Made by a program: the position numbers and the translations under genes. The notes beneath the pieces were generated by a model that saw only the letters and a list, made by a program, of their open reading frames with translations, was not told the DNA's origin and searched no databases. This document shows positions 25,063-47,800 of a DNA stretch of 64,000 bases, one piece after another (position 1 is the first letter of the stretch; the number at the start of each line of letters is the position of its first letter). The DNA comes from an uncultured delta proteobacterium (lineage in GTDB: Bacteria > Desulfobacterota > Binatia > Binatales > Binataceae). The DNA lies in assembly GCA_963813785.1 (NCBI GenBank), contig CAWFAJ010000002.1, positions 7,654-71,653 on the forward strand, given 5' to 3'.

Positions 25063-25237
25063 CGGCGGGCAGCGTATTTTGATCCGGTTGATTCGCGGTT
25101 ATCGCGCGGATAGTTTCGATATATCCCTCACTGGAGAGACTGCAGGCGTGCGGAAGTAACTACTCCATAGTTCGGGTCTTCGGACAATCGCTCGCGCGGC
25201 GAGATCAGCGCGCGGGCATTTTTGTGGAGCAGTTACG

Positions 25238-26914: not shown

Positions 26915-28102
26915 TCACAGTACTGGCCCTAGTGGCGAGCCTGGTGCCGGAGGCACGGCTAGAAAGGTGCAAGTCGACATTTCGCCTGGTGGAATGAATG
27001 GTAACTCTGTTTCAGTAAGTCCGGTCACCGTGGCATAGGCGTTCTGATCGGAGCTGCCCCAGGCCACCTGGCTGGATTCGAATCCGGCGCCGGCGTTCGC
27101 CGCATTGGTGCATCTCGGGTCGGTGGGAGAGTTGGTGATGCTGGTCCAGAGGTTGCTGGTACCGTCTGCGAATGCGGCGGGGCCATCATAAGGATCAAGA
27201 ATCGCCGTGAAGTTGCAGGCCGTGTTGTTGGACGGAGGTACCGGGACCCCGGGGGTAACCTGGAGGTTATCATTGCTATTGAAGCTGAGGATTCCGGTGG
27301 CTGGGCCGCTCAGGGGGATTTGCACCGACCCAACAGCCGTGCCGTAGCCTCCCGTGACTCCGCCGGAGAGCTCATTTTCGATGTAGGCGATGACGTCGTC
27401 TTCGTTGGCGCTGTACCCATTGCAAATGATTCCAAAACTGCCGAAATACGGTGGGCGGCCAAAGGTGGTAGGTATCCCGTGGGGACCTGGCGACTGCTGC
27501 TGCATCGTCAAAGTGAGAACCGGTGCAGTCGGTGATGGGACCGTGTTGCCGACCAGCGTGGAGTCGCCGGCCGTCTCATGGATAGTGAATGCGAATGGCA
27601 TACTGCCCGTGAGGGTGGGGCCAAGGGTTAAGTCGTAGTAGTTGAAGTTGGCAGTGAATTTCAGTAGCGCCATCCCCGGCGGCTCTCCCGCGGTCGTGAC
27701 ACTTGCAGCGGTGAAGTGGTTGCCACCGTCGAAGCACGGCAGAGCTCCTGTTATCACCGATTGTGCCGAGTAGCAGGTAGCGGGGGCGCCAGTGACGCCG
27801 ACGCCAGTCTCGAGGAATTGGATGTCGCCGTCGTTGTAGATCAATTCGCCGCTGATCTTACTACAGCCTGCGGAGAACTGGAGGACGCCAACGCCAACGA
27901 TGGCGGTGAGCGCCCCGTTGTATCCCCCCGGCGGGGCTAGCCCCCCCGATCCACTCGCTGGAAGGAGGCTGGGTTCGGCTCCCTGCATCAGCATCGCGTA
28001 GTTGTGTCCGCAAAAGCCGGGTGGCGTGGCCGCACTCGCAATGGGCGCCATCATGAGTGCCAGGCCACCAGCCAGGATTAGAAACAGAAGCTGCCTTTTC
28101 AT
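26915..28102 (-). CDS. hypothetical secreted Gly/Thr/Pro-rich protein
   Basis: Clear signal peptide (MKRQLLFLILAGGLALMMAPIASAA). Low-complexity but cysteine-containing mature region. No recognisable domain. Confidence 0.5.
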   Translation of the reverse strand: MKRQLLFLILAGGLALMMAPIASAATPPGFCGHNYAMLMQGAEPSLLPASGSGGLAPPGGYNGALTAIVGVGVLQFSAGCSKISGELIYNDGDIQFLETGVGVTGAPATCYSAQSVITGALPCFDGGNHFTAASVTTAGEPPGMALLKFTANFNYYDLTLGPTLTGSMPFAFTIHETAGDSTLVGNTVPSPTAPVLTLTMQQQSPGPHGIPTTFGRPPYFGSFGIICNGYSANEDDVIAYIENELSGGVTGGYGTAVGSVQIPLSGPATGILSFNSNDNLQVTPGVPVPPSNNTACNFTAILDPYDGPAAFADGTSNLWTSITNSPTDPRCTNAANAGAGFESSQVAWGSSDQNAYATVTGLTETELPFIPPGEMSTCTFLAVPPAPGSPLGPVL

Positions 28103-28479: not shown

Positions 28480-29138
28480 TCAGCTAGGGCTCAAGAGTAT
28501 CTCCATCCGGCGCAGCACTTGACTTCGAATAACCGCGATACTGTCGGGCGAGAACACCTCGATGCCAGTGCAGGCTTCGACCACCGGCGCAAAGGAGTAC
28601 GCGAGGATCGGCATTGCAAGTGCGATAAGCGTCAGACTTATAGGACCTTCGCCATCGCGGATGATCCCCATCTCGGCGCCGCGGATCACCAGTTGAGCCA
28701 TCTCGATCACCAGCGGCTTGATGAACACCTCGGATGAGCCGCGCACGCTGGCCGGGTCTTCAAGCACGCGATGCATCAATAGGCGCGCGTGGTTCGGATG
28801 GCTCGCGATGAAATCGTGCAGGCGCAAGATGATCGCGAGCATGTGTTCCTTTGGATTCTCGATTGCGGCGGTCTCGCTCCTGATGGAGACGAGCTGATCA
28901 AAAATTCGCCGGACGACCGCGTCGAAAATCGTGCGCTTGCTGTCGAAGTGATGGAACAGCGACGCCTTGCGAATGCCGGTGCGGCGGGCGATCACCTCCA
29001 GCGAGGTGCCGTTGTATCCGCGGTTGGCGAACTCTTGCTCGGCGACGGCGAGAATCTGTTCATAGGTGTCGGAGATCGCGTGAGTCACGCGCCGGGTGCG
29101 CACGCCCTTTAGTTTGCTCTTGCGTAATTGCCTGGGCA
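28480..29138 (-). CDS. TetR/AcrR family transcriptional regulator
   Basis: Start set at MPRQLRK (29138). HTH motif ILAVAEQEFANRGYNGTSLEVIARRTGIRKASLFHHFDSKRTIF. Confidence 0.75.
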
Positions 29139-29360
29139 TGTTCGCTGTTGTTGGGTTTCCTCGGGGGCGCAATATCAGACTGCCGTTGCGGGCTCGGCAA
29201 GGGTCTGGGTGATTCGATTCAGACCGCCTACCGGCCGCTTGGTAGGGAGAATAACGATCGTTCACCTTAGTGTAAACGACATTCGAGTCCACCCTATGCG
29301 GTTTCGGCGCAACTCCCTCGCAGCCGCGTCTCATGCTGAAATGACGGGCGAGGTAAGTCG

Positions 29361-30551
29361 TTAGGCGATCGTCCCGGAGGTGCGCAGGCGCTTGAGATCA
29401 TCGGGCGTGTAGCCGTGCGCGGCGAGGACTTCGTCGGTGTGCTCGCCAGCCAGCGGCGGGCGCGTGACCTTGCCCGGCGTCGCCTCGAGCTTGGCGGCCA
29501 GCCCGGTCGTCAGGTACTCGCCGAGTTCGGGATGCGGCATCCTGAGCAGCATCTCGCGGGCTGCGGTCTGCGGATGCTTGAACATTTCCTCGACGGTGAG
29601 TATCGGGCCCGACGGGATGCCTTCGCGGTTGAACAATTGGATCCAATGCTCCGCGCGATGCGGGGCGAGCGCGCGATTTATTTCCAAGGTCAACGCCGCG
29701 CGATTTTTCAGCCGCCCGCCGCTGCTCTTGAATCGATCGTCGGCGGCGAGTTCCGGCCGTCCAATTGCGGCGACGAGGTTTTGCCACATCGTCTCGTTCC
29801 CGCATGCGATGTTGAACGGCCGATCCGATGCCTCGAACGTGCCGTAGGGCGACACCAGCGGATGATGGTTGCCGGCGGGCGCAGGAGTCTTTCCGGTTTC
29901 GAAATAAATTCCCGCCGACCAGGTCAGGATGCTGACGATGGATTCGAGCAGCGAAGTCTCGACGCGCTGGCCGCGACCGTCGCGATGGCGCGCCTCGAGT
30001 GCGAGCAGGATGCCTTGCGCGGAAAAAATTCCGCCGAGCAGATCGCAGATGGCGATGCCGACGCGGGTCGGCCCGCTCTCGACGGTTCCCGTCACGCTCA
30101 TCAGTCCCGACATCCCCTGCGCTATCTGATCGAAGCCGGGGAAATCGCGCAGCGGCCCGGTCGAACCGAAGCCCGAGATCGAGCAGGTGATGATGCGCGG
30201 ATTGCGAATCGCAAGCGTTGCGTAGTCCAGCTCGAGCGCTTGCATCACGCCGGGCCGGAAGTTGTCCACGACCACGTCGGCGGCGTCGATCAGGCGCATC
30301 AGGATTTCGCGCCCCTCGGGCTTTTTGATGGCGACTCTTAAACTTTTCTTGGATCGATTGGCGGAGAGAAAGAAGTAGTTGTCGGGACCCTTGCTGGCGC
30401 CCAGCTCGCCGCGCGGATTTTCGACCGGTTCGATCTTGAGAATCTCGGCGCCGTAATCGCCGAGGATTTGCGTGCAGAACGGACCGGCGAAATACCTCGT
30501 CAGATCGACGACCTTTATTCCCGCCAAGGGCGGCGGCTGCTGTTCGGCCAT
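29361..30551 (-). CDS. CoA-transferase family III (CaiB/BaiF-like)
   Basis: KVVDLTRYFAGPFCTQILGDYGAEILKIE N-terminal signature and conserved Asp region. Confidence 0.85.
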   Translation of the reverse strand: MAEQQPPPLAGIKVVDLTRYFAGPFCTQILGDYGAEILKIEPVENPRGELGASKGPDNYFFLSANRSKKSLRVAIKKPEGREILMRLIDAADVVVDNFRPGVMQALELDYATLAIRNPRIITCSISGFGSTGPLRDFPGFDQIAQGMSGLMSVTGTVESGPTRVGIAICDLLGGIFSAQGILLALEARHRDGRGQRVETSLLESIVSILTWSAGIYFETGKTPAPAGNHHPLVSPYGTFEASDRPFNIACGNETMWQNLVAAIGRPELAADDRFKSSGGRLKNRAALTLEINRALAPHRAEHWIQLFNREGIPSGPILTVEEMFKHPQTAAREMLLRMPHPELGEYLTTGLAAKLEATPGKVTRPPLAGEHTDEVLAAHGYTPDDLKRLRTSGTIA

Positions 30552-30678
30552 GGCGGTAACCCTACTCGAAACTTCCGCGGCGGAGCTACGTCTAAGAAGC
30601 GATGGTCCACTTTTCGTTTTCGTTTTCCGTTTCCCGTTGGAAAGCGATTAGCAACGGGATAATAATTGAGCACCACCC

Positions 30679-31905
30679 ATGAAATTGTCCAGCATGAAAA
30701 ATAGCGCGTGGATGCTCGCGATCGCCGTGATCATCGTAGTCGCAGGCGTTTGGTATTTCCTTGGCGGGAGTTCGTCCGGGACAAGAATTGTTACGGCCAA
30801 GGTCACAGCAGGGCCGATCGTGCGGTCGGTCACGGCGACTGGAACGGTCAATCCGGTCATCACGGTGCAGCTCGGCACCTATGTGTCGGGACCGATCATC
30901 GCAATTTATAGAGACTACAATGCGGCTGTGAAAAAAGGCGAGCTGATCGCGAAAATTGACCCGAGCAGCTACCAGGTGACGGTCGATATTGCGCGTGCGA
31001 CGCTGGCGAACTCGATAGCGCAACTTGGCAAGGATACCGCCGACCTCAACTACAAGAAAGTCACCTACGGTCGCAACTTGGCGCTGTACAAGGCGGACTC
31101 GGTCTCGAAGGACACGCTGGATTCGTCGTACAGCGCATGGCAGATGGATGTCGCGCAGATCAAGCTCGATCACGCCAATATCCAGCAGCAAACGGCCAAC
31201 GTGAAAGCGGCCGAGGTCAACCTGAATTACACCAATATCGTGTCGCCGGTTGACGGCACGGTGGTCTCGCGCAACGTGGACGTGGGACAGACCGTGGCGG
31301 CGAGCTTTCAGACGCCGACGCTGTTTCTGATCGCGAAGGACCTGACCAAGATGCAGGTGGACTCCAACGTCAGCGAGTCCGATATCGGCTACGTGCAGCA
31401 GGGACAGAAGGCGACGTTTCGAGTGGACGCGTTTCCCGACCGCGATTTCGACGGCGTGGTTGCCCAGGTTCGGCAGGCGCCGATCACGGTTCAGAACGTG
31501 GTGACCTACGACGTGGTGGTGAGCGTGGAAAATCCCGAGCTGCTGCTCAAGCCCGGGATGACGGCGAATGTGACTATCGTGACCGCGTCAAAAGCCAACG
31601 CCGTGCGCGTTCCGGTCGACGCGCTGCGCTTTGCGCCGCCCGGAGAACCGCCGGCGGATTCCGCGGCGCTCGATGGAACGCCGGGCCGCCAGACTCGAGT
31701 CTGGGTTCTCGACAATGGCAAAGTCACACCGGTCACGATCACCACCGGGCTGAGCGACGGAACCTGGGTCGAAGTCGCCGAGGGCGACGTGCACGCGGGC
31801 GAACGCGTGGTGACCGACGAAGTTCGCAGCGCGGGATCGCATGGCGGAGGATCGGGGTCGCACAGCGGCAGCCCTATGACCGGAATGGTGCACATGCCCC
31901 ACTAG
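30679..31905 (+). CDS. macA: periplasmic adaptor (membrane-fusion protein) of a MacAB-type ABC exporter
   Basis: N-terminal TM anchor, coiled-coil/lipoyl/beta-barrel order (HlyD-family); immediately upstream of macB. Confidence 0.8.
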   Translation: MKLSSMKNSAWMLAIAVIIVVAGVWYFLGGSSSGTRIVTAKVTAGPIVRSVTATGTVNPVITVQLGTYVSGPIIAIYRDYNAAVKKGELIAKIDPSSYQVTVDIARATLANSIAQLGKDTADLNYKKVTYGRNLALYKADSVSKDTLDSSYSAWQMDVAQIKLDHANIQQQTANVKAAEVNLNYTNIVSPVDGTVVSRNVDVGQTVAASFQTPTLFLIAKDLTKMQVDSNVSESDIGYVQQGQKATFRVDAFPDRDFDGVVAQVRQAPITVQNVVTYDVVVSVENPELLLKPGMTANVTIVTASKANAVRVPVDALRFAPPGEPPADSAALDGTPGRQTRVWVLDNGKVTPVTITTGLSDGTWVEVAEGDVHAGERVVTDEVRSAGSHGGGSGSHSGSPMTGMVHMPH

Positions 31906-31920
31906 GCGCGCCGTTATCCG

Positions 31921-34062
31921 ATGAAAAGCGTGATTGAATTGGTCGATTTGACCAAGACCTACGTGCTCGGCGAGGTCGAGGTTAACGCGCTGCGCGGCGT
32001 CAACCTGAAGATCGAGCGGGGCGAGTTCGTCGCGGTGATGGGGTCGTCGGGCTCGGGCAAATCAACCCTGATGAACATGCTGGGATGCCTGGACCGGCCC
32101 ACCAGCGGACGCTACATGCTCGAGGGCGAGGATGTCGCGCGGCTGAACGAGTCGGAGTTGGCGACGATTCGCAGCCGTCGAGTCGGGTTCGTCTTCCAGA
32201 ACTTCAACCTGCTGTCGCGAACCTCGGCGCTGGAGAACGTCGAGTTGCCGCTGTTCTATTCAGCGTGGACTTCGGACGGAGAGAGTCGCGCCACTGAACT
32301 GGTGAAACTGGTCGGGCTGGCGGGCCGCGAGCAGAGCCATCCCAATCAACTCTCGGGCGGGCAGCAGCAACGCGTGGCGATCGCGCGCGCGCTGGTCAAT
32401 CGCCCGTCGATCCTGCTAGCCGACGAGCCCACCGGCAATCTCGACTCGACCAACTCGGCCGAGATAATGGAGGTGCTCAGCAAGCTCAATCGCGAACAGG
32501 ACCTGACGGTGATCGTGGTGACGCACGATCCGGATGTGGCGGCTTACGCGGACCGGACCGTCACGTTCCGCGACGGCGTGATCATCTCGGATACGCGAAA
32601 AGACGGCGCCGGCGCGCGTGCTGGCGCCGGCGGCAACGCGGCTGCGCCGGCCACAGTGGCGGAGGATCAAGCGGCGTCGCTGGTGGACGAGGTGTGGACG
32701 TTTGGCAGCATGGCGATGGTGGCGGCGGGTCGCGCGATCAAGCGCAACAAGCTGCGCGCAGCGCTCACGATGCTGGGCATTTTCATCGGCGTCGCGGCAG
32801 TGATCACGATGGTGGCGGTGGGCGACGGGGCGCGATCGTCGGTCGAGGCGCAAATCAACAGCCTCGGCACCAACCTGCTGATAGTGGTGCCGGGCGCGAC
32901 GACCGCCAACGGCGCACGCGCGGGGCTGGGCAGCAATTCCACCCTTACGGTCGGCGATGCGCAGGCGCTTGCGCATAGCGGAGGCGCGGTCGCGCTGGTG
33001 ACGTACATGGATCGGCAGGTAGCGCAGGTGGTCTCGGGAAATCGCAACTGGAGCACCAACATCCAGGGGACGACGCCGAGTTATTTTGCGATCCGAGACT
33101 GGCCGCCATCGATCGGACGCATCTTCACCGACGCGGAAGAAAAGGCGGGCGCGCCAGTATGCCTGCTCGGACAGACGGTGGTGAACAATCTGTTCGGCGA
33201 GGGACAGAATCCGGTCGGCGCGACCATCAGGGTGAAAAACTCCCCGATGAAAGTAATCGGCGTGCTCAGCCTCAAGGGACAGTCGAGTTACGGACAGGAC
33301 CAGGACGACGTGGTAATCGTCCCGTTCAACACCGCCGAGCGCAAAGTGCTGGGCGTGTCGGCACCGTCGGCAGCAGCGTCGTCCGCGGCGGTCGCCACGG
33401 CGAGTTCGACCAACCCTTACGCGTCGGTGCCGACGACCAATTCGGTTTACAGCTCGACCACCGAATCGACCAGCCCCTTCGGCAGTGCGCCAAAAATCGC
33501 CGGCATCGTTAATGTGATGTTTATCAAGGCGAGCGGTTCCGACCAGATGGACAACGCGGTTACGCAAATCACGCGCATGTTGCACGAGCGCCATCACATC
33601 CAGCCCAAACAGGACGACGACTTCACGGTGCGCGATCTAAGCGAAATAGCGGCGGCGTCCGAGGGCGCCACGCAGGTGATGACGATGTTGCTTTTAGCAG
33701 TGGCGTCGATTTCGCTGCTGGTGGGCGGAATCGGAATCATGAACATCATGTTCGTGTCGGTGACCGAGCGCACGCGCGAGATAGGAATTCGCATGGCGGT
33801 CGGCGCGCGCCGCATCCACATCATGCTGCAGTTCCTGGTCGAGGCGATGCTGCTATCGGCGATGGGCGGGCTGGCGGGGGTGATCCTGGGAATACTCGTG
33901 TCGAAGCTGATTTCAGCGCTGGCGGACTGGCCGACGGTGGTTTCGCCGACGGCGGTGGTGGGCGGTTTCGTCTTTTCGGCGGCAGTGGGAGTTTTCTTTG
34001 GCTATTACCCGGCGCGCAAAGCGAGTCTGCTACATCCGATCGAAGCTCTGCGCTACGAATAG
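31921..34062 (+). CDS. macB: MacB-type ABC transporter, fused ATPase plus FtsX-like permease
   Basis: Walker [10 protein letters not shown], signature [15 protein letters not shown], Walker [12 protein letters not shown]. Then a MacB periplasmic domain and four C-terminal TM helices. Confidence 0.85.
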
Positions 34063-34095
34063 TTCAGAAGCGATCACGGTTTCGGGCATTACCCC

Positions 34096-34198
34096 GCCCG
34101 GGCAGAACACGCCCGAGCGCGAGTGCTGGTACATCTATACGGGCGCGGTGGACAAAGATTTCTTCACCGCCGACGCAATCGTAAAGGCCACCAATTAG
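34096..34198 (+). pseudogene. 3' relic of a third DUF1329 paralog abutting the macB stop codon
   Basis: Translates to PGQNTPERECWYIYTGAVDKDFFTADAIVKATN*, homologous to the last ~35 aa of the two intact copies (PGQHTPERECWYVNMGAVDKDFCSVKAMVAAAP*). It is followed by the same conserved intergenic unit. Confidence 0.6.
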
Positions 34199-34413
34199 CA
34201 AATTAGCTAGATAAATCAGGAGGCTTTGCGTCCATCCAATAGCTCGAACGGGGCGACGCAGCGAAAAAGCTGCGCCGCCCCACGCTCTTCCGCCTCGGCA
34301 AATCAGCCTGTAGAGTTAAAAAACAATTCGATAATATGATGGATATATCCTTGACTTCAGAAAATCTCGCGATTATGAATTAGAGCTCTAAAGACGGATA
34401 GGAGATTATATTA

Positions 34414-35706
34414 ATGGCCAAGCATGCACTGGGGAAGATATTGCTGGGCGTGGGAATGTTAATGCTCTTATGTCTCAGCGTGGCATCAACAAATGCGGCG
34501 GTGAAGCCAGGTGACACCATAACACCTGAAAACGCGGCGCAGGTCAAAGATCTGGTTTCGCCCGGCGTGTATTACGCGGTGACTCATGGAATGCACATGG
34601 AGATCGTGCCCCCCGAGCGGATCGACTGGCCACCGCCTTACAGGGAGGCGACAGAAAAATATTCCTCGCAGGCGCGGCTCAGTAACGATCATCGCAGCTT
34701 GGTCGGCTACGTCGCCGGCCAGCCGTTTCCGTTGATCGATCCTAACGACCCCTATGTGGGGTCGAAAGTCATGTGGAACAACGTGTTTCGGCCCATGTCG
34801 AGCGATGACTACGACCTGCGCTTCTACGATTGCCAGAGCCAGTACGTTCGTCCGGGCCAGGACCAGAACGTGATCGAGGACTTGGAGATCGGTCATTACG
34901 CCGGATACAACCTGTTCGGACGGACCGAGGTCGAGCCGATGCCGGTCGATCCCGACTTTAAACAGTCGGGGCGGATGTGGCTATTCAGTCTATACCCCGT
35001 GCTTTCGCCGGCGGACCAACGCGGCGTCGGAATAGTCCGCTATCGCTACGTGGATCCGAACCGCGGCGACGACACCTGGGATTGGCAGCCCGGCACCCGT
35101 CGCGTGCGGCGCCTGAACGAGGCGATAAACAGCAGCGCGACGGGAGCGCAGAGCTTCGACCCCGACCATTATGCAGGCTTCAACCCCAAGACCGAGCAGT
35201 ACAACTACAAGTTCCTGGGTGAGAGGCAGATGCTCGCGAGCGTGCATGCGCAGCATTCGCCCGAAGATACTTGCCCCTACGATGGCGGTGCGACCGCATG
35301 CCCCGAGGCTTGGGAGATGCGCGACGTATACATCGTCGAGGCGCTGCCCCGGCGCGATTCGAACAATCCGGGTGCGCTCGACAAGTTGACCAACGTCTAT
35401 GTGGACACCGAATTAGGCTTCAACCCGTATATCGACACTTACGACCAGAAAGGTCGTTTGTGGCGCTCGCACATCTACTGGCTGACCTATCGCGACCGCC
35501 CGGTGCCCGATGCCCGCGTGGCGATCTACCCGTTCAAGCGGGAGTTCATAGTGGGTGCGGCCTCGATCGACATGCAGGCCAACTTCTCGACAATGTGTTA
35601 CCTGCCCGGCCAGCACACGCCTGAGCGCGAATGCTGGTACGTCAACATGGGGGCGGTCGATAAGGATTTCTGCTCGGTGAAGGCGATGGTGGCCGCAGCT
35701 CCTTGA
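34414..35706 (+). CDS. DUF1329 family periplasmic protein (LolA-like fold), copy 1
   Basis: Signal peptide, then the motif block QPFPLIDPNDPYVGSKVMWNNVFRP that I recall from DUF1329; 430 aa. Confidence 0.65.
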   Translation: MAKHALGKILLGVGMLMLLCLSVASTNAAVKPGDTITPENAAQVKDLVSPGVYYAVTHGMHMEIVPPERIDWPPPYREATEKYSSQARLSNDHRSLVGYVAGQPFPLIDPNDPYVGSKVMWNNVFRPMSSDDYDLRFYDCQSQYVRPGQDQNVIEDLEIGHYAGYNLFGRTEVEPMPVDPDFKQSGRMWLFSLYPVLSPADQRGVGIVRYRYVDPNRGDDTWDWQPGTRRVRRLNEAINSSATGAQSFDPDHYAGFNPKTEQYNYKFLGERQMLASVHAQHSPEDTCPYDGGATACPEAWEMRDVYIVEALPRRDSNNPGALDKLTNVYVDTELGFNPYIDTYDQKGRLWRSHIYWLTYRDRPVPDARVAIYPFKREFIVGAASIDMQANFSTMCYLPGQHTPERECWYVNMGAVDKDFCSVKAMVAAAP

Positions 35707-35923
35707 GCGAGTTGGCTATATAAATCAGGGGCTTTACGTCCCTCTAAATTGCTCGAACGGGGCGGTGCAGCGAAAAGCTGCGCCGCCTCGCGCTTTTCTT
35801 CCGTCCGCAGATCAGATTGTAGAATTAAGGAACAATCTGATAATATTTGCAGTCGCATACTTGACTTGGGAAAATTTCGGGGGCCAAAATTAGAATTCCT
35901 AAGACGAACAGGAGGTTGTACTA

Positions 35924-37219
35924 ATGGCCAGGCATGCTTTGGGGAAGATATTGCCGGGCGTGGCGACGCTAACACTCTTGTGTCTCATCGTGGCGCCAGC
36001 AAATGCGACAGTGAAGCCGGGGGACACCATAACGCCCGAAAACGCGGCGCAGGTCAAAGACCTGGTTTCGCCCGGGGTGTATTACGCGGTGGCTCATGGA
36101 ATGCACATGGAAATCATACCTACCGAGCGGATCGATTGGCCGCCGCCTTACAGAGAGGCGACGGAAAAGTATTCCTCGCAGGTACGGCTCACTAACGATC
36201 ATCGCAGCATGGTCGGCTACGTCGCCGGCCAGGCATTTCCGCTGATCGATCCGAACGACCCTTATGTAGCGACGAAAATCATGTGGAACAACGTGTTCCG
36301 TCCGATCAGCACTGACGACTACGATCTGCGCTTCTACGATTGCCAGAGCCAGTACGTTCGTCCCGGCCAGGAACAGAACATCATCAACGACATCGAGATC
36401 GGTCATTACGCCGGGTACAACCTCTTCGGACGGACCGAAGTCGAGCCAATGCCGGTCGATCCGGACTTCAAGCAGTCGGGGCGCATGTGGTTGTTCGCTC
36501 TCTATCCGCTGCTCGCGCCGCAGGAATCGCGCGGCCAAGGCCTGATCCGCTATCGCTACGCGGATCCGAAACGCGGCGACGACAGCTGGGATTGGCAGCC
36601 CGGCACCCGTCGTGTGCGGCGCCTGAACGAGGCGATGCTCTCCACCGCGACCGGTGCGCAGAGCTACGATCCTGATCACTATTCAGGCTTCAACCCCAAG
36701 ACCGAGCAGTACAACTACAAATTCCTGGGTGAGCGGCAGATGCTCGCGACCGTGCATGCGCAGCATTCGCCCGAACAGACTTGCGCTTATGATGGCGGTG
36801 CAACCGCATGCCCCGAGGCTTGGGAGCTGCGTCACATGTACATCGTCGAGGCGACACCCCGGCGCGATATCGGCGAGGCAGGCAGCGCGCTCGACAAGTT
36901 GACCGACGTCTATCTGGACACCGAATTATGTTTCGAGCCGTACGTCGACACCTACGACCAGAAGGGTCATTTGTGGCGCGCGCACATCTACTGGCTGGCC
37001 TATCGTGACCGCCCGGTGCCCGATGCCCGCGTGGCGATCTACCCGTTCAAGCGGGAGTTCGTGGTCGGCGCAGCTTCGATCGACACGCAGGCTAATTTCT
37101 CGACAATGTGTTACCTGCCCGGCCAGCACACGCCTGAGCGCGAATGCTGGTACATCAACATGGGGGCGGTCGATAAGGATTTCTGCTCGGTGAAGGCGAT
37201 GGTGGCCGCAGCTCCTTGA
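35924..37219 (+). CDS. DUF1329 family periplasmic protein, copy 2 (tandem paralog, about 80% identical to copy 1)
   Basis: Colinear with copy 1 over its full length. The upstream intergenic region is also duplicated. Confidence 0.65.
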   Translation: MARHALGKILPGVATLTLLCLIVAPANATVKPGDTITPENAAQVKDLVSPGVYYAVAHGMHMEIIPTERIDWPPPYREATEKYSSQVRLTNDHRSMVGYVAGQAFPLIDPNDPYVATKIMWNNVFRPISTDDYDLRFYDCQSQYVRPGQEQNIINDIEIGHYAGYNLFGRTEVEPMPVDPDFKQSGRMWLFALYPLLAPQESRGQGLIRYRYADPKRGDDSWDWQPGTRRVRRLNEAMLSTATGAQSYDPDHYSGFNPKTEQYNYKFLGERQMLATVHAQHSPEQTCAYDGGATACPEAWELRHMYIVEATPRRDIGEAGSALDKLTDVYLDTELCFEPYVDTYDQKGHLWRAHIYWLAYRDRPVPDARVAIYPFKREFVVGAASIDTQANFSTMCYLPGQHTPERECWYINMGAVDKDFCSVKAMVAAAP

Positions 37220-39312: not shown

Positions 39313-41511
39313 ATGAAACTGCAGCATCGACTGATTTCCTGCCGCGAGCGAGTCGCAAGACAAAGCACCTGGCGGTCAATCCTAAGAATCCATGCCTTGG
39401 CACTGCTGGCGTGGGGGTTTGCTGGCTCGCCGAGCGCATTGGCGTTCGACGTAAAGAGCGCAAAGCTGATCGATAAGGGTTTCAAGCTTTTCACCCAGGA
39501 AACATTCAAGGGCAACGGCCGTACCTGCTCAACCTGCCATATACCCAAGGACGACTACACGATCAGCCCGGCGGATTTTCCCACGCTGAGCGCCCATGAC
39601 AGGAACCTCGTGCTGGCGACACACAATTCGCAGCTCGAAAACCAGAACTTGGTAAATCAATTCGCCCTGTTCAACATCACTAACGAAACGCCGGCCGCGA
39701 GCGGAAATGGTACCACGCCGACCGGTCCGTTCCGCGCCTCGATGCAGCTAAGCGGATTGGCGCTCACCACGCTGAACGACTGCCCGAATGCGACATTGAT
39801 TGCGGCGGCCACCGACACCGGCGCGACCGCCGAGATCACAACCGTCACGCCTCCCCTCTTCCCGTTTGTGGTAAACGAACTCGTAAGAATCGAGGGAGTC
39901 AGCGTCGCCGGCTACAATGGCAGTACTTTTGAGATCTCCAGCGTAATCAGCCCCACCACATTCCAGTACACGACGTTGACTGGAGCCGATATCACCGGAC
40001 TCCCCTCGGCAGGGCCCGGCGGCGGTGTCAGCGGGCTGCCCACTCCACCGACTACTACTACCGGGTCGGGAGTGTGTTCCACTGCGCCTAATTTCGTGAC
40101 ATCCCCAACCACCACAGGCACCCGGTTCATAGAGCTCGGTTGGGCGGGAGACGGCGCACCCGTCGACCCCACGCTTTTCGAAGTTGGCAAACCTCGCGAC
40201 TACGCGGATTGCGTAACCTCCGTCAACAACGCTAATTCTAACCCCAACGTCCTCGGCCCGGTGTTGAATGCGTTCTCGACCGGAGCCGTCAGGCACCATT
40301 TCACGCGCACCAATTCCCGCGTGCCTGGAAAGGATTTCCGCTGCCCGACCTCCGCTGAGTTGAATGCGCTGGCGGCATTTCAAGAGTACCTCGGGCGCCA
40401 ATTCCCATCTGGTACACCTCTCGAACTCGCCTTGGAAGGAGGAACAACTTTCCCGGGAACACAAGTCAGCTCGTTGCAGCCCGTGATCACCTTTAACGAT
40501 TCCACGGCGGAGACGGGCAAGGCGATATTCTTGAATCCGAGCGCGGCTTGCAATTTCTGCCACTTCAATGGCGGCGCGAGCATGAGTACAACCCAGGTAA
40601 AAACGGAGCCGTTAGGAGACCCGCCGCTGCCGTTTCCCGGTCGCAACGAGAACAACTCGCAACTCGTGAACGTCTTAACCGACACCACCTTTATTATTCC
40701 GTCAACCGGACAGACGGTCACTGGCGGGCTTGACGGCTTGACGCCGGTGACCATTGGCAATGATCCCGGCGACGGAACTCCTTTCAGCGACAAGCATGGC
40801 GGGTTCATACCCATATTCAACGTCCAGTCAATTATAGAAGCGCCGCGCAAAAAGAGTTTTTTCCACAATGGTTCCTTCACTACCAGCGTGGAGGACGCGG
40901 CGTCGTTCTACTTTGGTAACCCTACGGTCAATATTTCGGGCAGCACACTCATCACGCCCGGTTTCGACCTCGCCAACGGCAATTTCGCGGTTGGCACCAA
41001 CCAGGACGGCTCACTAGTTACCGTCGCGTCAGGGTTGCCAAACCCACTGCCAAGAGCAGCCGGGGGAGAAACCGGCACCCAAGCCCTTGTGCAACTTGCC
41101 GGCACCTACTTTCCTTCCGATTCGGTGGCCGGCAACGTGCTGACTTCGCCGGGTGGGCAGGACGTGCTCAACACGCTTGGGTTCTTCCTGAGGGCGCTCA
41201 ACGTGGTTTACAGCATCGCCGATTGCGAGCGGCTGGTGGACGATACGGTCAGCCGTCTCCATGCGGGCTTGCCGACACAGGTGCCGGTCCTCAACTGCAC
41301 CACGGACTTGGGCGATGTGGACCGCGTCATTGCGGGCGCGCGTGTGACCGTGCCGGACAACTACCTCGCCGTCCAGACGCAGGCGCAGGAACTCCAGGGC
41401 CAGTTGAAGAAGTATGCCAAGCATGGCAATCGCGTGAAGTTGATAGGGATTACTAACCAGCTGAAAGCCATGAGGGAGTCGATTGCATCGATCTCGCCAG
41501 ACCTGCCGTGA
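39313..41511 (+). CDS. di-haem c-type cytochrome, CCP/MauG-like, with a large Thr/Gly-rich insertion
   Basis: Signal peptide. First CxxCH sits in the CCP-type context FKGNGRTCSTCHIP. A second CxxCH (AACNFCHFNGG) lies about 370 aa later, against about 145 aa in canonical CCPs. 732 aa in total. Confidence 0.55.
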   Translation: MKLQHRLISCRERVARQSTWRSILRIHALALLAWGFAGSPSALAFDVKSAKLIDKGFKLFTQETFKGNGRTCSTCHIPKDDYTISPADFPTLSAHDRNLVLATHNSQLENQNLVNQFALFNITNETPAASGNGTTPTGPFRASMQLSGLALTTLNDCPNATLIAAATDTGATAEITTVTPPLFPFVVNELVRIEGVSVAGYNGSTFEISSVISPTTFQYTTLTGADITGLPSAGPGGGVSGLPTPPTTTTGSGVCSTAPNFVTSPTTTGTRFIELGWAGDGAPVDPTLFEVGKPRDYADCVTSVNNANSNPNVLGPVLNAFSTGAVRHHFTRTNSRVPGKDFRCPTSAELNALAAFQEYLGRQFPSGTPLELALEGGTTFPGTQVSSLQPVITFNDSTAETGKAIFLNPSAACNFCHFNGGASMSTTQVKTEPLGDPPLPFPGRNENNSQLVNVLTDTTFIIPSTGQTVTGGLDGLTPVTIGNDPGDGTPFSDKHGGFIPIFNVQSIIEAPRKKSFFHNGSFTTSVEDAASFYFGNPTVNISGSTLITPGFDLANGNFAVGTNQDGSLVTVASGLPNPLPRAAGGETGTQALVQLAGTYFPSDSVAGNVLTSPGGQDVLNTLGFFLRALNVVYSIADCERLVDDTVSRLHAGLPTQVPVLNCTTDLGDVDRVIAGARVTVPDNYLAVQTQAQELQGQLKKYAKHGNRVKLIGITNQLKAMRESIASISPDLP

Positions 41512-42392: not shown

Positions 42393-43366
42393 TCAGGCCG
42401 TGCGCACCGCCCAGAAGATGCCGTAGTCGATCATTCCCAGGCGCAGTGCGCGATAGGACCGCGTCACGTGCTCGTGGACGTTGTCCAAGTCCACTCCCGC
42501 GCGCGCCCTCACGTACCCTTTGTACATCCGGTAGAGCGGCGGGGTCTCAAAGAAGAGCGCGAAGATGCGGCAGTACTGTTCGAAGTAGCGCAGATTCTTC
42601 GCGGTGCAGATCTCCGCTTCGCGAAGCGTGAAGCCGGCCTTGGTGATCTTCGCACGATAGCTGTGGATCGTCTCCAGATAGGGCACGTCCCATGCCTCGA
42701 GGAAGCTCCTGTAGATCCGGCGATTTCTCTCCGAAGCGTTGACGACCCGATCTACCACCAGCAGATCGGCGAATGCGAATGCTCCGCCCGGTTTGAGCAC
42801 CCGCGCAGCTTCTTTTAGGAACTGGCCCTTGTCCTTGAAGTGCGCGGGAGCCTCGATTGACCACGCAAGCGAGTATTCTCGATTGCGCACTGGTAGCTTC
42901 AGCGCGTCTCCTTCGGTGAATCCGACGTGCCCTGGCGAAATCTTCCGGGTGGCGCTGTTGCGGTTCGCACGCCGAACGTTGAATGGAGTGAAGTCGAGGC
43001 CGAGTACGTCCAACCCGTATTTTTTGTGCGCACGAATCGCGGGACCACCACGCCCCGAGGCGATATCGAGGAGACGCGGGGGATCGTCACCCTTGTAGGG
43101 GCCGGTGTTGTGAAGAGCGAGCAGTCCCTCAGCAATCCGATCGATCAGGCGAAGATGAGCCCTTTTGCTCCAGTGACGCTGGCGCGAATCTGAGTATCCT
43201 ATGTTCAGGTAGGTACCGAGATCCGACCACTGGCCCAGGAATCGATATAGATCCGAGTGCGAATTACCATAGCTGTAGTGCCGGCGGACGTCATCATCGA
43301 CCCAATGCTCGTTCCTTATCGCGGACGCGTCCGGGGCGCCGGCGGGGCTATTCCTTGCGCGCATTG
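42393..43366 (-). CDS. class-I SAM-dependent methyltransferase (cyclopropane-fatty-acyl-phospholipid / mycolic-acid synthase-like)
   Basis: SAM motif I LLDIASGRGGP; CMAS-family C-terminal region. Start chosen at MRARNSP (43366); the track ORF extends further upstream. Confidence 0.7.
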
Positions 43367-44793
43367 CCAATCTGCCAGTGGCGGGCCAGTTTCGTAGGAA
43401 TTTGAAAGGGTGGCCGATCGCCCCCGCGCTCCGACAGATGCAGGCCTTCCGCCATCCTGCGAAACAGCCATTCCGCCGCGAGCCGGATCGGCGGTAGCTG
43501 ATCGATGTCTTCGGCATCGAGATGGCGCAGGCCTCCGGCCTTCAGTAAATCCTGGAAAACGGTTGCAGCCCAGTCGAGGTCGATTCCGGCCAGGCCCGCG
43601 ACGCCGGTGCCGATCCGATGTGCATGGGTGAGACCGCGGAGCATCTGCAGGCCAAGGGTGTCTTTCCAGTCAAGGCGCAGCCCAATTGCGCCCGCGATCT
43701 TCGAGCTAACCAGTTCGCGGGTGATTATACGCGGGATGCGGCGCAACGGCTCGAAGGTCTCGGGAACAAAGTCCTCCATGTACTCGAGCAGCGCCTTCTC
43801 CAACGATCTGCCCTCGTTGGTTCTGGCGATGACGCCGGGCCTCAGCCAGATGCGCTCGTATAGCTCCTGCGCCTCCTCCATCGACTCTTGGCCCTTGGGA
43901 AGGAGCATTCTGTCATCGACACCCATGATCGCGCCCACGACGTTCCAGCAGTGAAGATATGCTTTTTCTTCGAAGTGGGTGAGATCGACCCCCAACTTGC
44001 GAAGACTGCGAAGCACTACGTAGGAGAAACTCAGGATCGCCATGCTCATGGCAACTTGGTTAGCCGGCTCGCCCCACTCTTGTTCGTGCCAGCGCATCTG
44101 CAGGAAGGCGTTTCCGAGTTCAGATCCCGGTTTGCCGTTGGCGGGCATTTTGGTGGGCTGCTGCTTGATCAGATATCTGATCGCGGCGTGCATCAGGCGC
44201 ACCTTTTGCGCCGCCTCGACGCCTTCGTCGCTCAAGCCTTGCACGTTGTCTTCGCGCTCTTGCATCAGGTTGACCACAAACAGGGATGTTTCCCACAGGC
44301 GGCGCTGGGTGTGACTCAGGAGTTGCTGCGTCATTCCCAAAACCTTTGCGCCATAGGAGGTGGCGTAGGATTCCGGCAGACTGGCGCATCCCAAGATTGC
44401 AAAGGCAATCATACCGTTTTGTCTAAAGACGCGCTGGCCGGTCGCAATCAGCTCTGGCTCAGCCCAAGGTACTATTCTTGTGTCGTCGAGGTATTTGTCC
44501 AGGAGTTCGCCAACTTTCTTGCGATCGCCGGGACTAGAGCCTTTAAAGGCGTCGGTCAGCTTGCTTCTGAAATGTCCGATTCTCTCATGTTGAATCATGT
44601 TGCGCAGTAGGTCCGCGAGCAGTGGCAGTCCACCTTGAGTCTGCTGCGCGACCTTGGTCACCAAAGCGTCTGCCAGGTCGTCCCCCTTCCGACACATCTC
44701 GTCAATAAGATTTTCGCTCCATCCTTGTGTCTGCTCGATTTCCTGCCTTCCTCTCCCTCTTGCTTTTGCTCGATCGCGGGCTCTTTTTGGCAT
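43348..44793 (-). CDS. DUF2236 (MpaB/oxygenase-like) family protein
   Basis: 481 aa, all-helical, with a central block VRLMHAAIRYLI that I recall as the DUF2236 core; the family assignment is tentative. Confidence 0.45.
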   Translation of the reverse strand: MPKRARDRAKARGRGRQEIEQTQGWSENLIDEMCRKGDDLADALVTKVAQQTQGGLPLLADLLRNMIQHERIGHFRSKLTDAFKGSSPGDRKKVGELLDKYLDDTRIVPWAEPELIATGQRVFRQNGMIAFAILGCASLPESYATSYGAKVLGMTQQLLSHTQRRLWETSLFVVNLMQEREDNVQGLSDEGVEAAQKVRLMHAAIRYLIKQQPTKMPANGKPGSELGNAFLQMRWHEQEWGEPANQVAMSMAILSFSYVVLRSLRKLGVDLTHFEEKAYLHCWNVVGAIMGVDDRMLLPKGQESMEEAQELYERIWLRPGVIARTNEGRSLEKALLEYMEDFVPETFEPLRRIPRIITRELVSSKIAGAIGLRLDWKDTLGLQMLRGLTHAHRIGTGVAGLAGIDLDWAATVFQDLLKAGGLRHLDAEDIDQLPPIRLAAEWLFRRMAEGLHLSERGGDRPPFQIPTKLARHWQIGNARKE

Positions 44794-44805
44794 CCTCGAT
44801 TCCCT

Positions 44806-47800
44806 CTACATGGTTGCCGATTCCGTCAGGAGCGCCTTGGCGTCCTTAAGATCGGGCGTATCGAATCCCTCGGTGAACCAACCGTAAACCGACTCCAAAG
44901 TCTTGCGAGCCGATTGCGGATTGCATTGTTTGCGCTTGAGACGGTAAAGGCTCATCGCGGTCCGCAGCTCCCATGACTTCGCGCTCTGGCGCCGCGCGAC
45001 TTCCAGGCTCTTCATGAAGGCTGCTTCCGCACTCGCCTCCTGCGGACGGGTCAGCGCGAGCAAAAGCGCGCCTTTAAGCCGGTACAACTCGGCTTCGTAG
45101 TATTCCTCGCGGGTGCTGGCAACCTCGGCGAGACCCTCGCTGATGGCTTCGAGGCCTTGCTCAGGGTGGCCGGACTTCGCCAGCGCGTCGGCCAGCAGTC
45201 CTTGCTGATGAGGGCCTGTCACGGGGGCTCCCAAGGCGCGACATGCGTCCTTCGCGCCACGCAGTACAGCTACAGCCTCCTCAGACTGCCCGAGCTGGTT
45301 CAGCGCCCATCCGAGGCTGAATCGAGTAGCCAACAAGAGGAAGGCGAATCCATGCTCCGTCGAGAGGGCGAGACCTTCATCAGCGAGTTGTTTGCCCAAT
45401 GGAATGTCGCGGAGCAACTGGCAGAGGGCGGCCCCGTACGTCTTGGCGTACGCAAGACTGAATTTGTGAGACAGCCCGCTAGCCAGCATGAAGCAGTCGC
45501 GCTGCCTTGAAAGCGCTTGTTCAGGATAGCCTTGAAACCACAAGATCCAAGGCAGAACGGAGCCCGCGACGATACCGGGGTCCTGACCGTAGGCCAGCGC
45601 ATGGCCTTGGTGACTGCGCGGATCGTAAATCGACAACACTTTCTCGAAATGGGAGCGCGCCCGGGCAAGATCGCAGCCTCCGTAGAATGCGTTCTGTCCG
45701 CTCACTGCATGCGCTTCCAGAAGCAGATCCGGGTCGCGCTGACGTTCGGCCAGACTCAGAAGCTGACGGCCGATTTCCTGGGAGTCTCGATACTCGGCGC
45801 GGACGAGATAATAGCCCCACAAGCCATAAAGCACCGGGTAAAGCTGCGGAGTATCTCCGAATCCGGCGCATAGTTCGCGCGCGCGGCTGAACGCGCCCTC
45901 CACATCCGGCGACGAGTAACCCTTCGCGAACATCAACGATTGCCCAAGGTTTAACTGCAGACCAAGTTCCAACTGATCGCGCTGCGGGCCGGCGGCGATC
46001 GCCGGCAGCAATTCCAGACCTGAAGTGAAATGAGCTATTGCGTCGGCATAGGCGGAGCGTGCTGCTACCTTCTGCCCGGCCAGGTAAAAGTACGGTGCGG
46101 CTTTGTTCGCGTCGGACCCGCGTGAGTAGTGGCGCGCGAGCTCTTCGACGTAATCGTCTAAGTGATTGGCAAACGTCGCCTCGATCGCTTCACCGATGCG
46201 GAGGTGTAGCGCCTTGCGCCGTTCGGCAAGCACCGAGCCGTAGGCCACTTCCTGCGTCAGCGCGTGTTTGAAGACGTATGCGGCATCGGGGAACGTCGGC
46301 AGCTCGTGGATGAACTCCGCCAATTGCAGGCTGGCGAGCATTCGCTGGAGATCCTCACCGTCCGTCGCCGCGACCTGCTCGATCAGGGCGAGTGGAATTT
46401 CCTTGCCAATCACCGCGAGCGTTTGCAGCAATTCCTTTTCCCTGGGGACACGCCGGTCGATGCGCGAGGCAAGTATTCCCCGAACGGTCGGCGGGATACG
46501 CAACTCCGCCAGCGGCTTCGCGAGTCTCACGGCGCCATCGCGCACCAGTGCGCTCTCTTCGAACATCGATTGGACGATCTCCTCCATGAAAAACGGATTG
46601 CCATCGGTCTTTTCGACGATGAGCCGTTTCAGTCCGGACAGGTCGTCGTCGCCGTGCTTTGCAGGGGCGGATCGGGAACCGTCCGCCGCCGCGAACACGC
46701 GCGCGTGTCGGGCGTCTTCGCGTTCGCCACTGTGCTCCTGGTCAGGCAGAGGAAAGGAAGTGTCGAGCAGCGCGGACAGCATCTCCTCGGCGCTGTCCTT
46801 GCCGAGCGGATCGAGCCGCAGCTGCGTGTAGTAGGTCTTGCTTCCCCATTCGTGGTGATACTCGGGGCGATAGTTGACCAGCAGCAGAATCCGCGTGTTG
46901 GCGATTGCCTCTGCCAACATGTTCAACAGTGCCTGGCTCTCGCCGTCTATCCAGTGCAGGTCTTCGAAGATCAGCATCATCGGCTGCTCGCGGCTCTCGC
47001 GCAGCAGCAGGTTCTTCACCGCTTCCAGGGTTCGCCGTCGTTTGAGCTGCGGTTCCATCCCCGCGAGCGTGTTGCTCTCGTCCGTCACGCCGATAAGCGC
47101 AAACAGATAAGGGAGGGTTGTTTCCAGGGCGCGGTCCAGGGTCATCACCCTGCCGCTGACCTTCTCACGGCGCTTGCCATGGTCGTCTTCGGGCGTGATT
47201 TCGAAATAATCTCTGAGCAAATCAACCACCGGCAGATACGCCGGAGCCTTTGCGTGGGAGACCGAGAAGGTTTCGAGCAGCATCCAGCCCGACTGATTCC
47301 TGGCTTTGAACTCGTGGAACAGGCGCGATTTGCCGACTCCGGGCTCGGCCATCGCCGCCACGATTTGTCCGCGCCCTTGCTTTGCAAGCTCCGCGGCATG
47401 CGTCATCGCCTCGATCTCGCGCTCGCGTCCGACGAACTTCGTGAGTCCGCGTCCCGCTGACCGCTGCAGTCGGGTGCGCAGCGGTCCCAGCCCGGTAACT
47501 TCGTATACCTCGACCGGCTCGCTGATGCCCTTGATGCGCGCGGGGCCAAGCGCCTTCAGCGTGAAGTACCCCTCGACCAGCTTGCGGGTCGCCTCGGTGA
47601 TCGCAGTTGCACCAGGATGGGCCAGGGTCTGCATTCGCGCGGCGAGATTGGCGGTGTGTCCAATCGGCGTGTACTCGACATTGCCGCCGCCGGTGGCAAT
47701 CGAGCGCACCACGACCTCGCCGGTGTTGATTCCAATCCTGATCAGCAAGGGCGCGCGGCCCTCTCCCTGGAGCCTCTCTCCGTAGCGGCGCAGCTCTTCC

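Follow-up and report, generated by a model that had tools for sequence, protein, structure and literature searches.

A family-wide neighbourhood of MacAB-type transporter genes and tandem DUF1329 genes in Binataceae

The DNA considered here (the window) comprises 64,000 nucleotides of a metagenome-assembled contig (GenBank assembly GCA_963813785.1, contig CAWFAJ010000002.1, positions 7,654 to 71,653) from an uncultured soil bacterium, Candidatus Binatus, of the family Binataceae and the phylum Binatota; all positions below are those of the window. It contains the genes of a MacAB-type transporter, macA (30679-31905) and macB (31921-34062), followed by a 105-nt remnant of the C-terminal end of a DUF1329 gene and by two intact DUF1329 genes. 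This arrangement had been read in a preliminary description made from the sequence, and it was recovered at the same positions by an open reading frame (ORF) map, a repeat search and domain scans. Comparison with related genomes showed that the block composed of a coenzyme A (CoA)-transferase gene, macAB and DUF1329 is conserved family-wide in Binataceae. The features of the transporter genes and the array are as follows.

30679-31905, forward strand: macA, periplasmic adaptor of the membrane-fusion type, with a transmembrane helix at its N-terminus (HlyD_D23 and HlyD_3 domains)
31921-34062, forward strand: macB, fused ATPase/permease of the MacB family, an ATP-binding cassette (ABC) transporter of type VII, 713 aa (ABC_tran, MacB_PCD and FtsX domains)
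33361-33540, forward strand: lineage-specific MacB insert of approximately 45-60 residues (aa 481-540), missing from E. coli MacB in the alignment
34093/34096-34198, forward strand: pseudogene relic, the last ~34 codons and stop of a type-A DUF1329 gene, translating as PGQNTPERECWYIYTGAVDKDFFTADAIVKATN and stop
34250-34281, forward strand: GC-rich hairpin downstream of macB, the putative terminator inherited from the lost type-A gene (covariation by RNAalifold)
34310-34405, forward strand: predicted promoter and 5' untranslated region of copy 1, with an AT-rich block (34310-34337), -35 element CTTGACT (34350-34356), -10-like TATGAAT and Shine-Dalgarno sequence AGGAGA (34400-34405)
34414-35706, forward strand: DUF1329 copy 1 (type B), predicted secreted LolA-fold protein, 430 aa (PF07044)
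35759-35789, forward strand: copy 1's predicted intrinsic terminator (14 pairs and then CGCTTTTCTT in the terminator scan; covariation)
35819-35915, forward strand: predicted promoter and 5' untranslated region of copy 2, with an AT-rich block, -35 element CTTGACT (35860-35866), -10 CAAAAT and Shine-Dalgarno sequence AGGAGG
35924-37219, forward strand: DUF1329 copy 2 (type B), 431 aa (PF07044, E = 1.7e-39), orthologous to the second copy of the nearest relative (L001_c2)

Conservation was evaluated by scanning species-representative genomes, which yielded 524 relatives; the best 75 loci, all from Binataceae-type metagenome-assembled genomes, were used, and the window proteins were mapped onto them. 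A locus was treated as informative where the sequence ahead of its first DUF1329 gene extended for 4 kb or more, and 60 did so. MacB was encoded upstream in the same orientation in 48 of the 60, and lay within 600 nt of the array in 40 of those 48, so that the adjacency of macAB and DUF1329 proved to be a property of related genomes and not of the window alone. Homologues at 92%, 84%, 79% and 73% identity shared one order, i.e., a divergent CoA-transferase, MacA, MacB and DUF1329, and the adjacency held to approximately 60% identity in MacB and 66% in DUF1329 while the flanking genes differed between genera; downstream flanks in relatives included YchF, a transglutaminase-core gene and a Linocin gene. 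Among MacB-linked loci where copies could be counted, there was one DUF1329 gene in nine, two in 25 and three in five. The nearest database matches to the window copies were named DUF1329 proteins of Candidatus Binatus or other Binataceae, and one that is identical to copy 1 is encoded on a metagenome-assembled contig of 336 kb.

The two intact copies scored 141.9 and 136.6 bits against PF07044, where the gathering threshold is 23.1 (E approximately 1e-40), which confirmed their assignment to DUF1329; each also had an additional sub-threshold match to PF17131 (LolA_like). They were 87% identical in nucleotide and 85% in amino acid sequence, rather more than the 80% first estimated. At the N-terminus of both, a hydrophobic helix (residues 2-22) preceded a conserved ANA|(A/T)VKPGD motif, there was no lipobox, and cysteines were conserved among the DUF1329 proteins. 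With the signal read by eye, the copies are predicted to be Sec-secreted, soluble periplasmic proteins rather than lipoproteins.

The preliminary description had also placed DUF1329 among LolA-like folds, and had named the LolA family itself (PF03548, approximately 180-200 aa) as a model to search with. Neither copy matched the LolA Pfam family. A sequence-only search of PDB gave marginal matches (E = 0.005-0.2), such that a fold search was needed. An AlphaFold model obtained from a shallow alignment of 49 sequences, all at least 68% identical, was not used (predicted local distance difference test, pLDDT, 41); one built from 119 sequences, including two divergent groups of Binataceae paralogues, reached a pLDDT of 91.6 and a predicted template-modelling score of 0.89. 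Fold comparison superposed about 236 of 430 residues, with extra N-terminal (approximately residues 30-125) and C-terminal parts remaining, and confirmed a predicted unclosed beta-barrel of the LolA/LolB type. The protein sits in the branch containing LolA3, PF17131 and DUF1329, and not in LolA proper. The half-barrel fold of LolA and LolB binds hydrophobic ligands.

The pump itself is of a familiar kind. The macB gene starts 15 nt past the end of macA, placing adaptor and pump in one operon, and MacB carries ABC_tran (residues 24-171), MacB_PCD (281-492) and FtsX (594-702) domains, aligning end-to-end with E. coli MacB (5nik; phmmer, E = 7e-122). It has the layout of its family, in which an N-terminal ATPase domain is joined to a four-helix permease of the FtsX type and a large periplasmic domain separates TM1 from TM2. 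Its ATPase domain also scored well against LolD models. MacA aligned over its full length with the MacA equivalog model but fell short of the cut-off (189 bits against 342), as did MacB with NF007826 (513.8 bits against 966); therefore, both belong to their families without being orthologous to the macrolide pump of E. coli. The insert at residues 481-540 lies in the periplasmic domain, is rich in Ser, Thr and Ala, and was present in all 43 Binataceae orthologues that were extracted, with one motif beginning NPYAx and a second, PFGxAPKITGVVN. It is a candidate docking loop.

Each intact copy is preceded by a unit of approximately 215 nt (34199-34413 and 35707-35923), the two being about 74% identical, and the unit was compared over 33 aligned orthologous upstream regions from different species. 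Its elements came in a fixed order: a stop-proximal block, a 13-bp GC-rich hairpin with a T-run, the AT-rich block GTAGAATTAAnGAACAnTTTGATGATAT, CTTGACT, a -10-like xAxAAT and a strong GGAGG Shine-Dalgarno sequence. The imperfect hairpin and TTGACTT box noticed earlier were both found to be conserved: RNAalifold identified 11 pairs in the hairpin, 10 of them with compensatory changes (at one position, for example, 15 sequences had GC and 11 had AU) and followed by a T-run in most species, while CTTGACT was invariant in 33 of 33 regions, 61-65 nt before the ATG. The hairpin is thus read as a predicted intrinsic terminator and CTTGACT as the putative -35 element of a sigma-70-type promoter; a promoter scan matched TTGACT-18-CAAAAT ahead of copy 2, and no Rfam family matched the intergenic units. 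Since each gene has its own promoter and terminator, each DUF1329 gene would form a separate, monocistronic transcription unit.

The remnant behind macB was first taken for the third copy of a recent duplication. It starts 31-34 nt past the macB stop codon and is 76-77% identical in nucleotide sequence to the 3' ends of both copies; in tblastn it matched a type-A DUF1329 at E = 1.5e-12 and copy 1 at 2.6e-9, and therefore the match was not due to chance. In most Binatus species, the first gene after macB is a type-A DUF1329 (about 71% identical to copy 1) and the second a type-B gene (about 80%), and a tree of 130 DUF1329 copies split these two types, with both window copies in type B. All of the best matches to the relic were type-A C-termini, its amino acid identity being 84% with type A and 68% with type B, and it has PGQN, DKDFFT and VKA, as type A does, where type B has PGQH, DKDFCS and VAA. 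The relic was consequently reassigned: it carries the older, type-A residues, and type A is intact in most species of the genus.

Nor was the relic truncated by recombination with macAB, as had been suggested. Relative to genomes that keep type A, homology ran through the macB stop, broke for approximately 30 nt and resumed about 105 nt before the type-A stop; this pattern indicates a single deletion of approximately 1.4 kb, with an identical junction in five assemblies (the window, L001, L002, L012 and L013, loci of relatives being cited by number). The deletion took the promoter and about 92% of the coding sequence, leaving 105 nt and the terminator. Small ORFs of 41-44 aa have been annotated here in relatives, but a functional small ORF was rejected: there is no in-frame start codon or Shine-Dalgarno sequence after macB, family-invariant positions N411 and M412 are replaced (WYINMG to WYIYTG), and the relic has acquired indels in L012 and L013 and has been mostly deleted in L009 and L010.

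Because the contig is metagenome-assembled and tandem repeats are prone to mis-assembly, the array and its relic might in principle be an artefact. This explanation is extremely improbable, given that relic, junction and gene order recur in independent assemblies from different samples (L001, L002-L005, L012, L013), that copies 13% apart in DNA would not be collapsed by an assembler, and that both copies are intact ORFs with the signature of purifying selection.

The array had been described as a recent tandem duplication of gene-plus-promoter units. The unit of duplication was correct, each type-B gene having been copied with its upstream cassette, while the recency was not. Between copies 1 and 2 the rate of nonsynonymous substitution (dN) was 0.091 and of synonymous substitution (dS) 0.344 (dN/dS = 0.27), which suggests that both are under purifying selection; for orthologous pairs between the window and L001, dS was 0.24-0.26. 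Therefore, the duplication is older than the split from L001, and in the tree each window copy grouped with its own orthologue there. The last 45 codons or so (35572-35706 and 37085-37219) were nearly identical (dS = 0.075), and a recent tract of gene conversion was therefore indicated at the 3' ends. The comparisons showed the sequence of events: an ancestral macB-A-B arrangement lost most of type A by deletion, followed by tandem duplication of a unit of terminator, promoter and type-B gene, and then by partial homogenisation. A distant DUF1329 paralogue, approximately 30% identical, was observed at L058 (1535-2827) and also in L016, L017, L022, L059 and L064, where it sits close upstream of the macAB cluster, with an alpha/beta-hydrolase gene on one side and an ABC-F gene on the other; no relic of it was found in the window, where the corresponding position (25063-25237) holds only 176 nt.

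It is rather unlikely that the two intact copies are redundant and serve only to raise the dosage of a single carrier. Copy number does vary between one and three among close relatives, with independent, lineage-specific duplications in L010 and L012; each copy was duplicated along with its promoter; and the homogenised 3' ends are as redundancy would have them. However, 15% of residues differ, with replacements clustered at codons ~201-250 and ~301-350 (dN = 0.18-0.20), each copy has had its own orthologue since before the L001 split, and the older types (A, B and others) have remained separate clades in different genera, which is the pattern expected of specialisation. The gene-dosage amplification proposed at the outset was accordingly only half of the story. 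Distinct paralogue types have been kept across genus- and family-level divergence under purifying selection, and the array is better described as the product of birth-and-death evolution than of recent dosage amplification.

Upstream of macA, the features were as follows.

28480-29334, reverse strand: TetR-family gene, on the same strand as the CoA-transferase gene and directly downstream of it
29361-30551, reverse strand: family III CoA-transferase gene, divergent from macA (PF02515, E = 4.6e-119)
30567-30595, no strand assigned: candidate operator/promoter element CGAAAC-N15-ACGTCTAA, in the divergent intergenic region between the CoA-transferase gene and macA
30637-30666, forward strand: promoter-like site of macA, TTGGAA-18-AATAAT (consensus scan)

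The CoA-transferase and TetR genes had been suggested as a pair supplying substrate or regulation, and the two differed in their conservation. The divergent CoA-transferase was present in most Binataceae loci; its NCBIfam matches were all under equivalog cut-offs. A TetR homologue occurred in one other locus only (L014), in a different position on the far side of the ABC-F gene, and TetR was therefore rejected as a conserved regulator of the cluster. Across 22 aligned intergenic regions, both end motifs of CGAAAC-N15-ACGTCTAA were kept, as was a TGGAAA box upstream of macA (30637-30643); these may represent an operator with its promoter. A second TetR regulator, with a C-terminal domain of the same TetR_C_29 type as that beside the CoA-transferase, was observed at 13946-15897 (reverse strand), where it is paired with a luciferase-like monooxygenase gene. 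A second and independent association of DUF1329 with CoA-transferases was seen in L078 (6243-11272) and L080 (6287-11266), in which a DUF1329 paralogue without macAB is immediately preceded, on the same strand, by a tandem run of three family III CoA-transferase paralogues.

On balance, the DUF1329 carriers and MacAB seem to be functionally coupled, albeit by a judgement drawn from gene neighbourhood and held with modest confidence. Coupling was favoured by a block that has survived the turnover of its flanks with order and strand constant, by the dedicated periplasmic partners known from other type VII systems and by the conserved, lineage-specific periplasmic loop of this MacB. Each characterised type VII ABC transporter has such a partner, i.e., EnvC, LolA, MacA-TolC or TesA (PMC12646458), and DUF1329 elsewhere has been predicted to dock onto an inner-membrane pump (PMC10866462). 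The following mechanism can be envisaged. DUF1329 proteins would be abundant, soluble periplasmic carriers of a hydrophobic or amphipathic molecule, exchanging it with the periplasmic domain of MacB where the lineage-specific loop sits; MacB, using ATP, would drive the cargo outward via MacA and an unlinked outer-membrane channel; and different paralogues might widen or partition the range of cargo, which the conserved CoA-transferase suggests could be linked to organic-acid or acyl metabolism. In its specific form, with DUF1329 proteins as dedicated soluble partners of MacAB, a diverged array of carriers feeding or receiving hydrophobic cargo, and the insert as their docking site, the proposal is tentative and may well be wrong in part or whole.

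Several observations weigh against coupling, and against the dedicated export route that the preliminary description had put forward, which remains a deduction from neighbourhood. With a predicted terminator and promoter between them, macAB and the DUF1329 genes are transcribed separately. In eight of the 48 linked loci, between 1.7 and 6.6 kb of unrelated, mostly opposite-strand genes part macB from the array, among them adenine glycosylase and transposase-like ORFs. Twelve of the 60 informative loci were without macAB, although eight of these came from genomes that also yielded a macAB-linked array and are in those cases extra paralogues rather than alternatives. A 69% homologue belonged to an array of three DUF1329 genes around which 5 kb held no macAB, and the unlinked paralogues adjoin alpha/beta-hydrolases and CoA-transferases, which hints at substrate handling and not export. 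A pump with a MacA adaptor would be expected to use a MacA/TolC duct, for which a soluble carrier is not obviously needed. Finally, the argument concerns neighbourhood in a single, uncultured family, and this leaves some room for inherited synteny. As an instance of what may lie between the genes, a complete Binataceae chromosome (L015, 5524-8114) has transposase-like and HNH-like ORFs between macB and a DUF1329 pair.

Inherited synteny without physical coupling would make MacAB an ordinary efflux pump. The DUF1329 proteins, alone or with unlinked partners, would then chaperone in the periplasm the hydrophobic compounds on which the cell grows (for example alkanes, fatty esters or organic acids), in keeping with the catabolic settings in which DUF1329 is met in other bacteria. 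The separate transcription units, the intervening genes and the frequent macAB-less paralogues with their recurrent hydrolase and CoA-transferase neighbours are all consistent with this, and so are the failure of P. putida DUF1302/DUF1329 mutants on Tween 20 and butyl stearate, the requirement of AmeB for growth on monoterpenes, and the predicted degradation of alkanes and fatty acids by Binatota. Against it, the CoA-transferase/macA/macB/DUF1329 block has stayed intact over family-level divergence while both flanks turned over, and a linked array was always downstream of macB on the same strand. A separate strong promoter, moreover, is to be expected of a stoichiometric carrier beside a catalytic pump, and so is not evidence against coupling. 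For these reasons synteny alone was considered somewhat unlikely.

A further explanation casts MacB as a LolCDE-like extractor and DUF1329 as a LolA-like ferry of lipoproteins to the outer membrane. MacB and LolCDE have the type VII architecture in common, the ATPase domain resembles LolD, DUF1329 has a predicted LolA/LolB fold, and a MacB-like and LolA-like cluster in Borrelia has been proposed to export lipoproteins or non-polar ligands. Such a role is nonetheless very improbable, since the cluster includes a MacA adaptor and joins ATPase and permease in one polypeptide, neither of which is true of LolCDE; the copies did not match the LolA Pfam family; the nearest solved relative, LolA3, does not bind LolB, its function being held separate from that of LolA; and the paralogues have been freely gained and lost, unlike an essential trafficking route.

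The remainder of the window was ordinary chromosome, including glutamate synthase, an ammonium transporter, electron transfer flavoprotein, an ABC-F protein, YchF, kinases and oxidoreductases, and its base composition was unremarkable throughout. Domain scans of the window found no DUF1302 (PF06980), BNR, MMPL/RND or TolC-type gene, and there was no OEP family match among approximately 40 large ORFs that were scanned; in E. coli, too, tolC lies apart from macAB. DUF1302, MMPL and BNR were also missing from the 25 most frequent families among 80 neighbouring ORFs of nine loci and from the sampled flanks of 12 further loci, and none of the three recurred beside the DUF1329 genes without macAB. 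In one relative a weakly BNR-like gene was seen 4 kb downstream as part of an operon of another kind. Two unannotated ORFs of 732 and 395 aa were considered as an outer-membrane partner and rejected, neither being barrel-like. The first (39313-41511, forward strand) had no Pfam or NCBIfam match, an N-terminal signal-like segment and two CxxCH haem motifs (CSTCH and CNFCH), and is likely to be secreted, as a di-haem c-type cytochrome or a peroxidase-like protein. The second (26915-28102, reverse strand) had a clear signal peptide, a composition rich in Gly, Ala, Pro and Thr, and no family match; it was taken to be coding because of its codon-position GC pattern. A few kb past the cluster, the region 43348-48300 (reverse strand) encodes an 1164-aa protein with zinc-ribbon, adenylate/guanylate cyclase, AAA_16 and TPR domains, as well as a protein with an MpaB/Lcp (rubber-oxygenase-like) catalytic domain.

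DUF1329 is a large family of unknown function that recurs in gene clusters for the degradation of hydrocarbons, terpenes, steroids and fatty esters, and its members can rank among the most abundant proteins of such degraders. Its published partners are the DUF1302 barrel and an MMPL/RND pump; adjacency to MacAB suggests that the carrier may be modular with respect to energy source, and in a widespread soil and peat lineage it offers a second, independent context for testing DUF1329 function. Were coupling to be true, DUF1329 would be a modular carrier usable by RND/MMPL or ABC energisers, and the locus, which nominates a candidate new class of periplasmic partner, would add a further type VII ABC transporter/partner class to FtsEX-EnvC, LolCDE-LolA, MacAB-TolC and YbbAP-TesA. 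The array is also a clean and datable example of birth-and-death evolution, in which one paralogue was lost, its neighbour was re-duplicated with a terminator/promoter cassette, and gene conversion affected the 3' ends.

Among the papers found to mention DUF1329, none describes a pairing with MacAB, in agreement with the preliminary description, which knew of no such module, and the neighbourhood appears undescribed. What has been reported is the cofitness or co-localisation of DUF1329 with DUF1302, which forms an outer-membrane barrel of 18 strands, with a protein of the BNR/Ycf48-like kind and with an MMPL/RND pump, an association found in Shewanella, Pseudomonas, Kangiella, Castellaniella (AmeABCD) and one benzene-degrading member of Desulfobacterota, with proposed roles ranging from the export of a cell-wall component to the transport of hydrophobic substrates. 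In the known clusters, which include AmeABCD of Castellaniella defragrans, PP_0765-0766 and PP_2018-2019 of P. putida, and Sama_1588-1591 of Shewanella, a secreted, LolA-like PF07044 protein is encoded beside an inner-membrane envelope transporter, just as it is here; both settings are tied to the handling of hydrophobic compounds, and DUF1329 paralogues are common in both. They differ in that the present locus has an ATP-driven, MacB-type ABC pump with MacA instead of a proton-driven MMPL/RND pump with BNR, in that no DUF1302 barrel was found in the window or the sampled flanks, and in the tandem arrangement of its diverged paralogues.

Compared with E. coli MacAB-TolC (5nik), the locus shares a fused MacB ATPase/permease, a MacA-type adaptor encoded immediately upstream and, presumably, an unlinked gene for the outer-membrane channel, but it differs in its sub-equivalog scores and in the extra periplasmic loop of approximately 45-60 residues in MacB. 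No described MacAB system has an equivalent of the LolA-like genes found downstream here. With LolCDE-LolA it has in common a type VII ABC transporter and a soluble periplasmic half-barrel of LolA fold, whereas the ATPase is here fused to the permease, a MacA adaptor is present and the carrier falls outside the LolA family PF03548. LolA3 of P. gingivalis (9tp6), the closest solved relative of DUF1329, has no assigned function; like the PF17131 proteins (3bk5) it is approximately 240-270 residues long, lacks the extra N- and C-terminal parts of DUF1329 and is only 15-16% identical to it. A P. gingivalis gene annotated as an outer membrane lipoprotein-sorting protein lies in a TetR-MMPL cluster and not beside MacAB.

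Only one proposal combining a LolA-like protein with MacB was found in the literature, a computational one concerning the plasmid cluster BBJ23-BBJ29 of Borrelia, which is predicted to encode a MacB-like ABC transporter, a LolA-like protein and an Omp85 barrel. That cluster differs from the present locus in having no MacA adaptor, a separate ATPase and permease, an encoded barrel and no tandem array of paralogues, and its LolA-like protein is small, LolA-sized and not a DUF1329. A mechanistic precedent is the recently described YbbAP-TesA of E. coli, whose type VII ABC transporter draws hydrophobic compounds out of the inner membrane and passes them to a dedicated soluble partner in the periplasm; there, however, the partner TesA is an enzyme, a lipid hydrolase, in place of a LolA-fold binder, and the system works with no adaptor.

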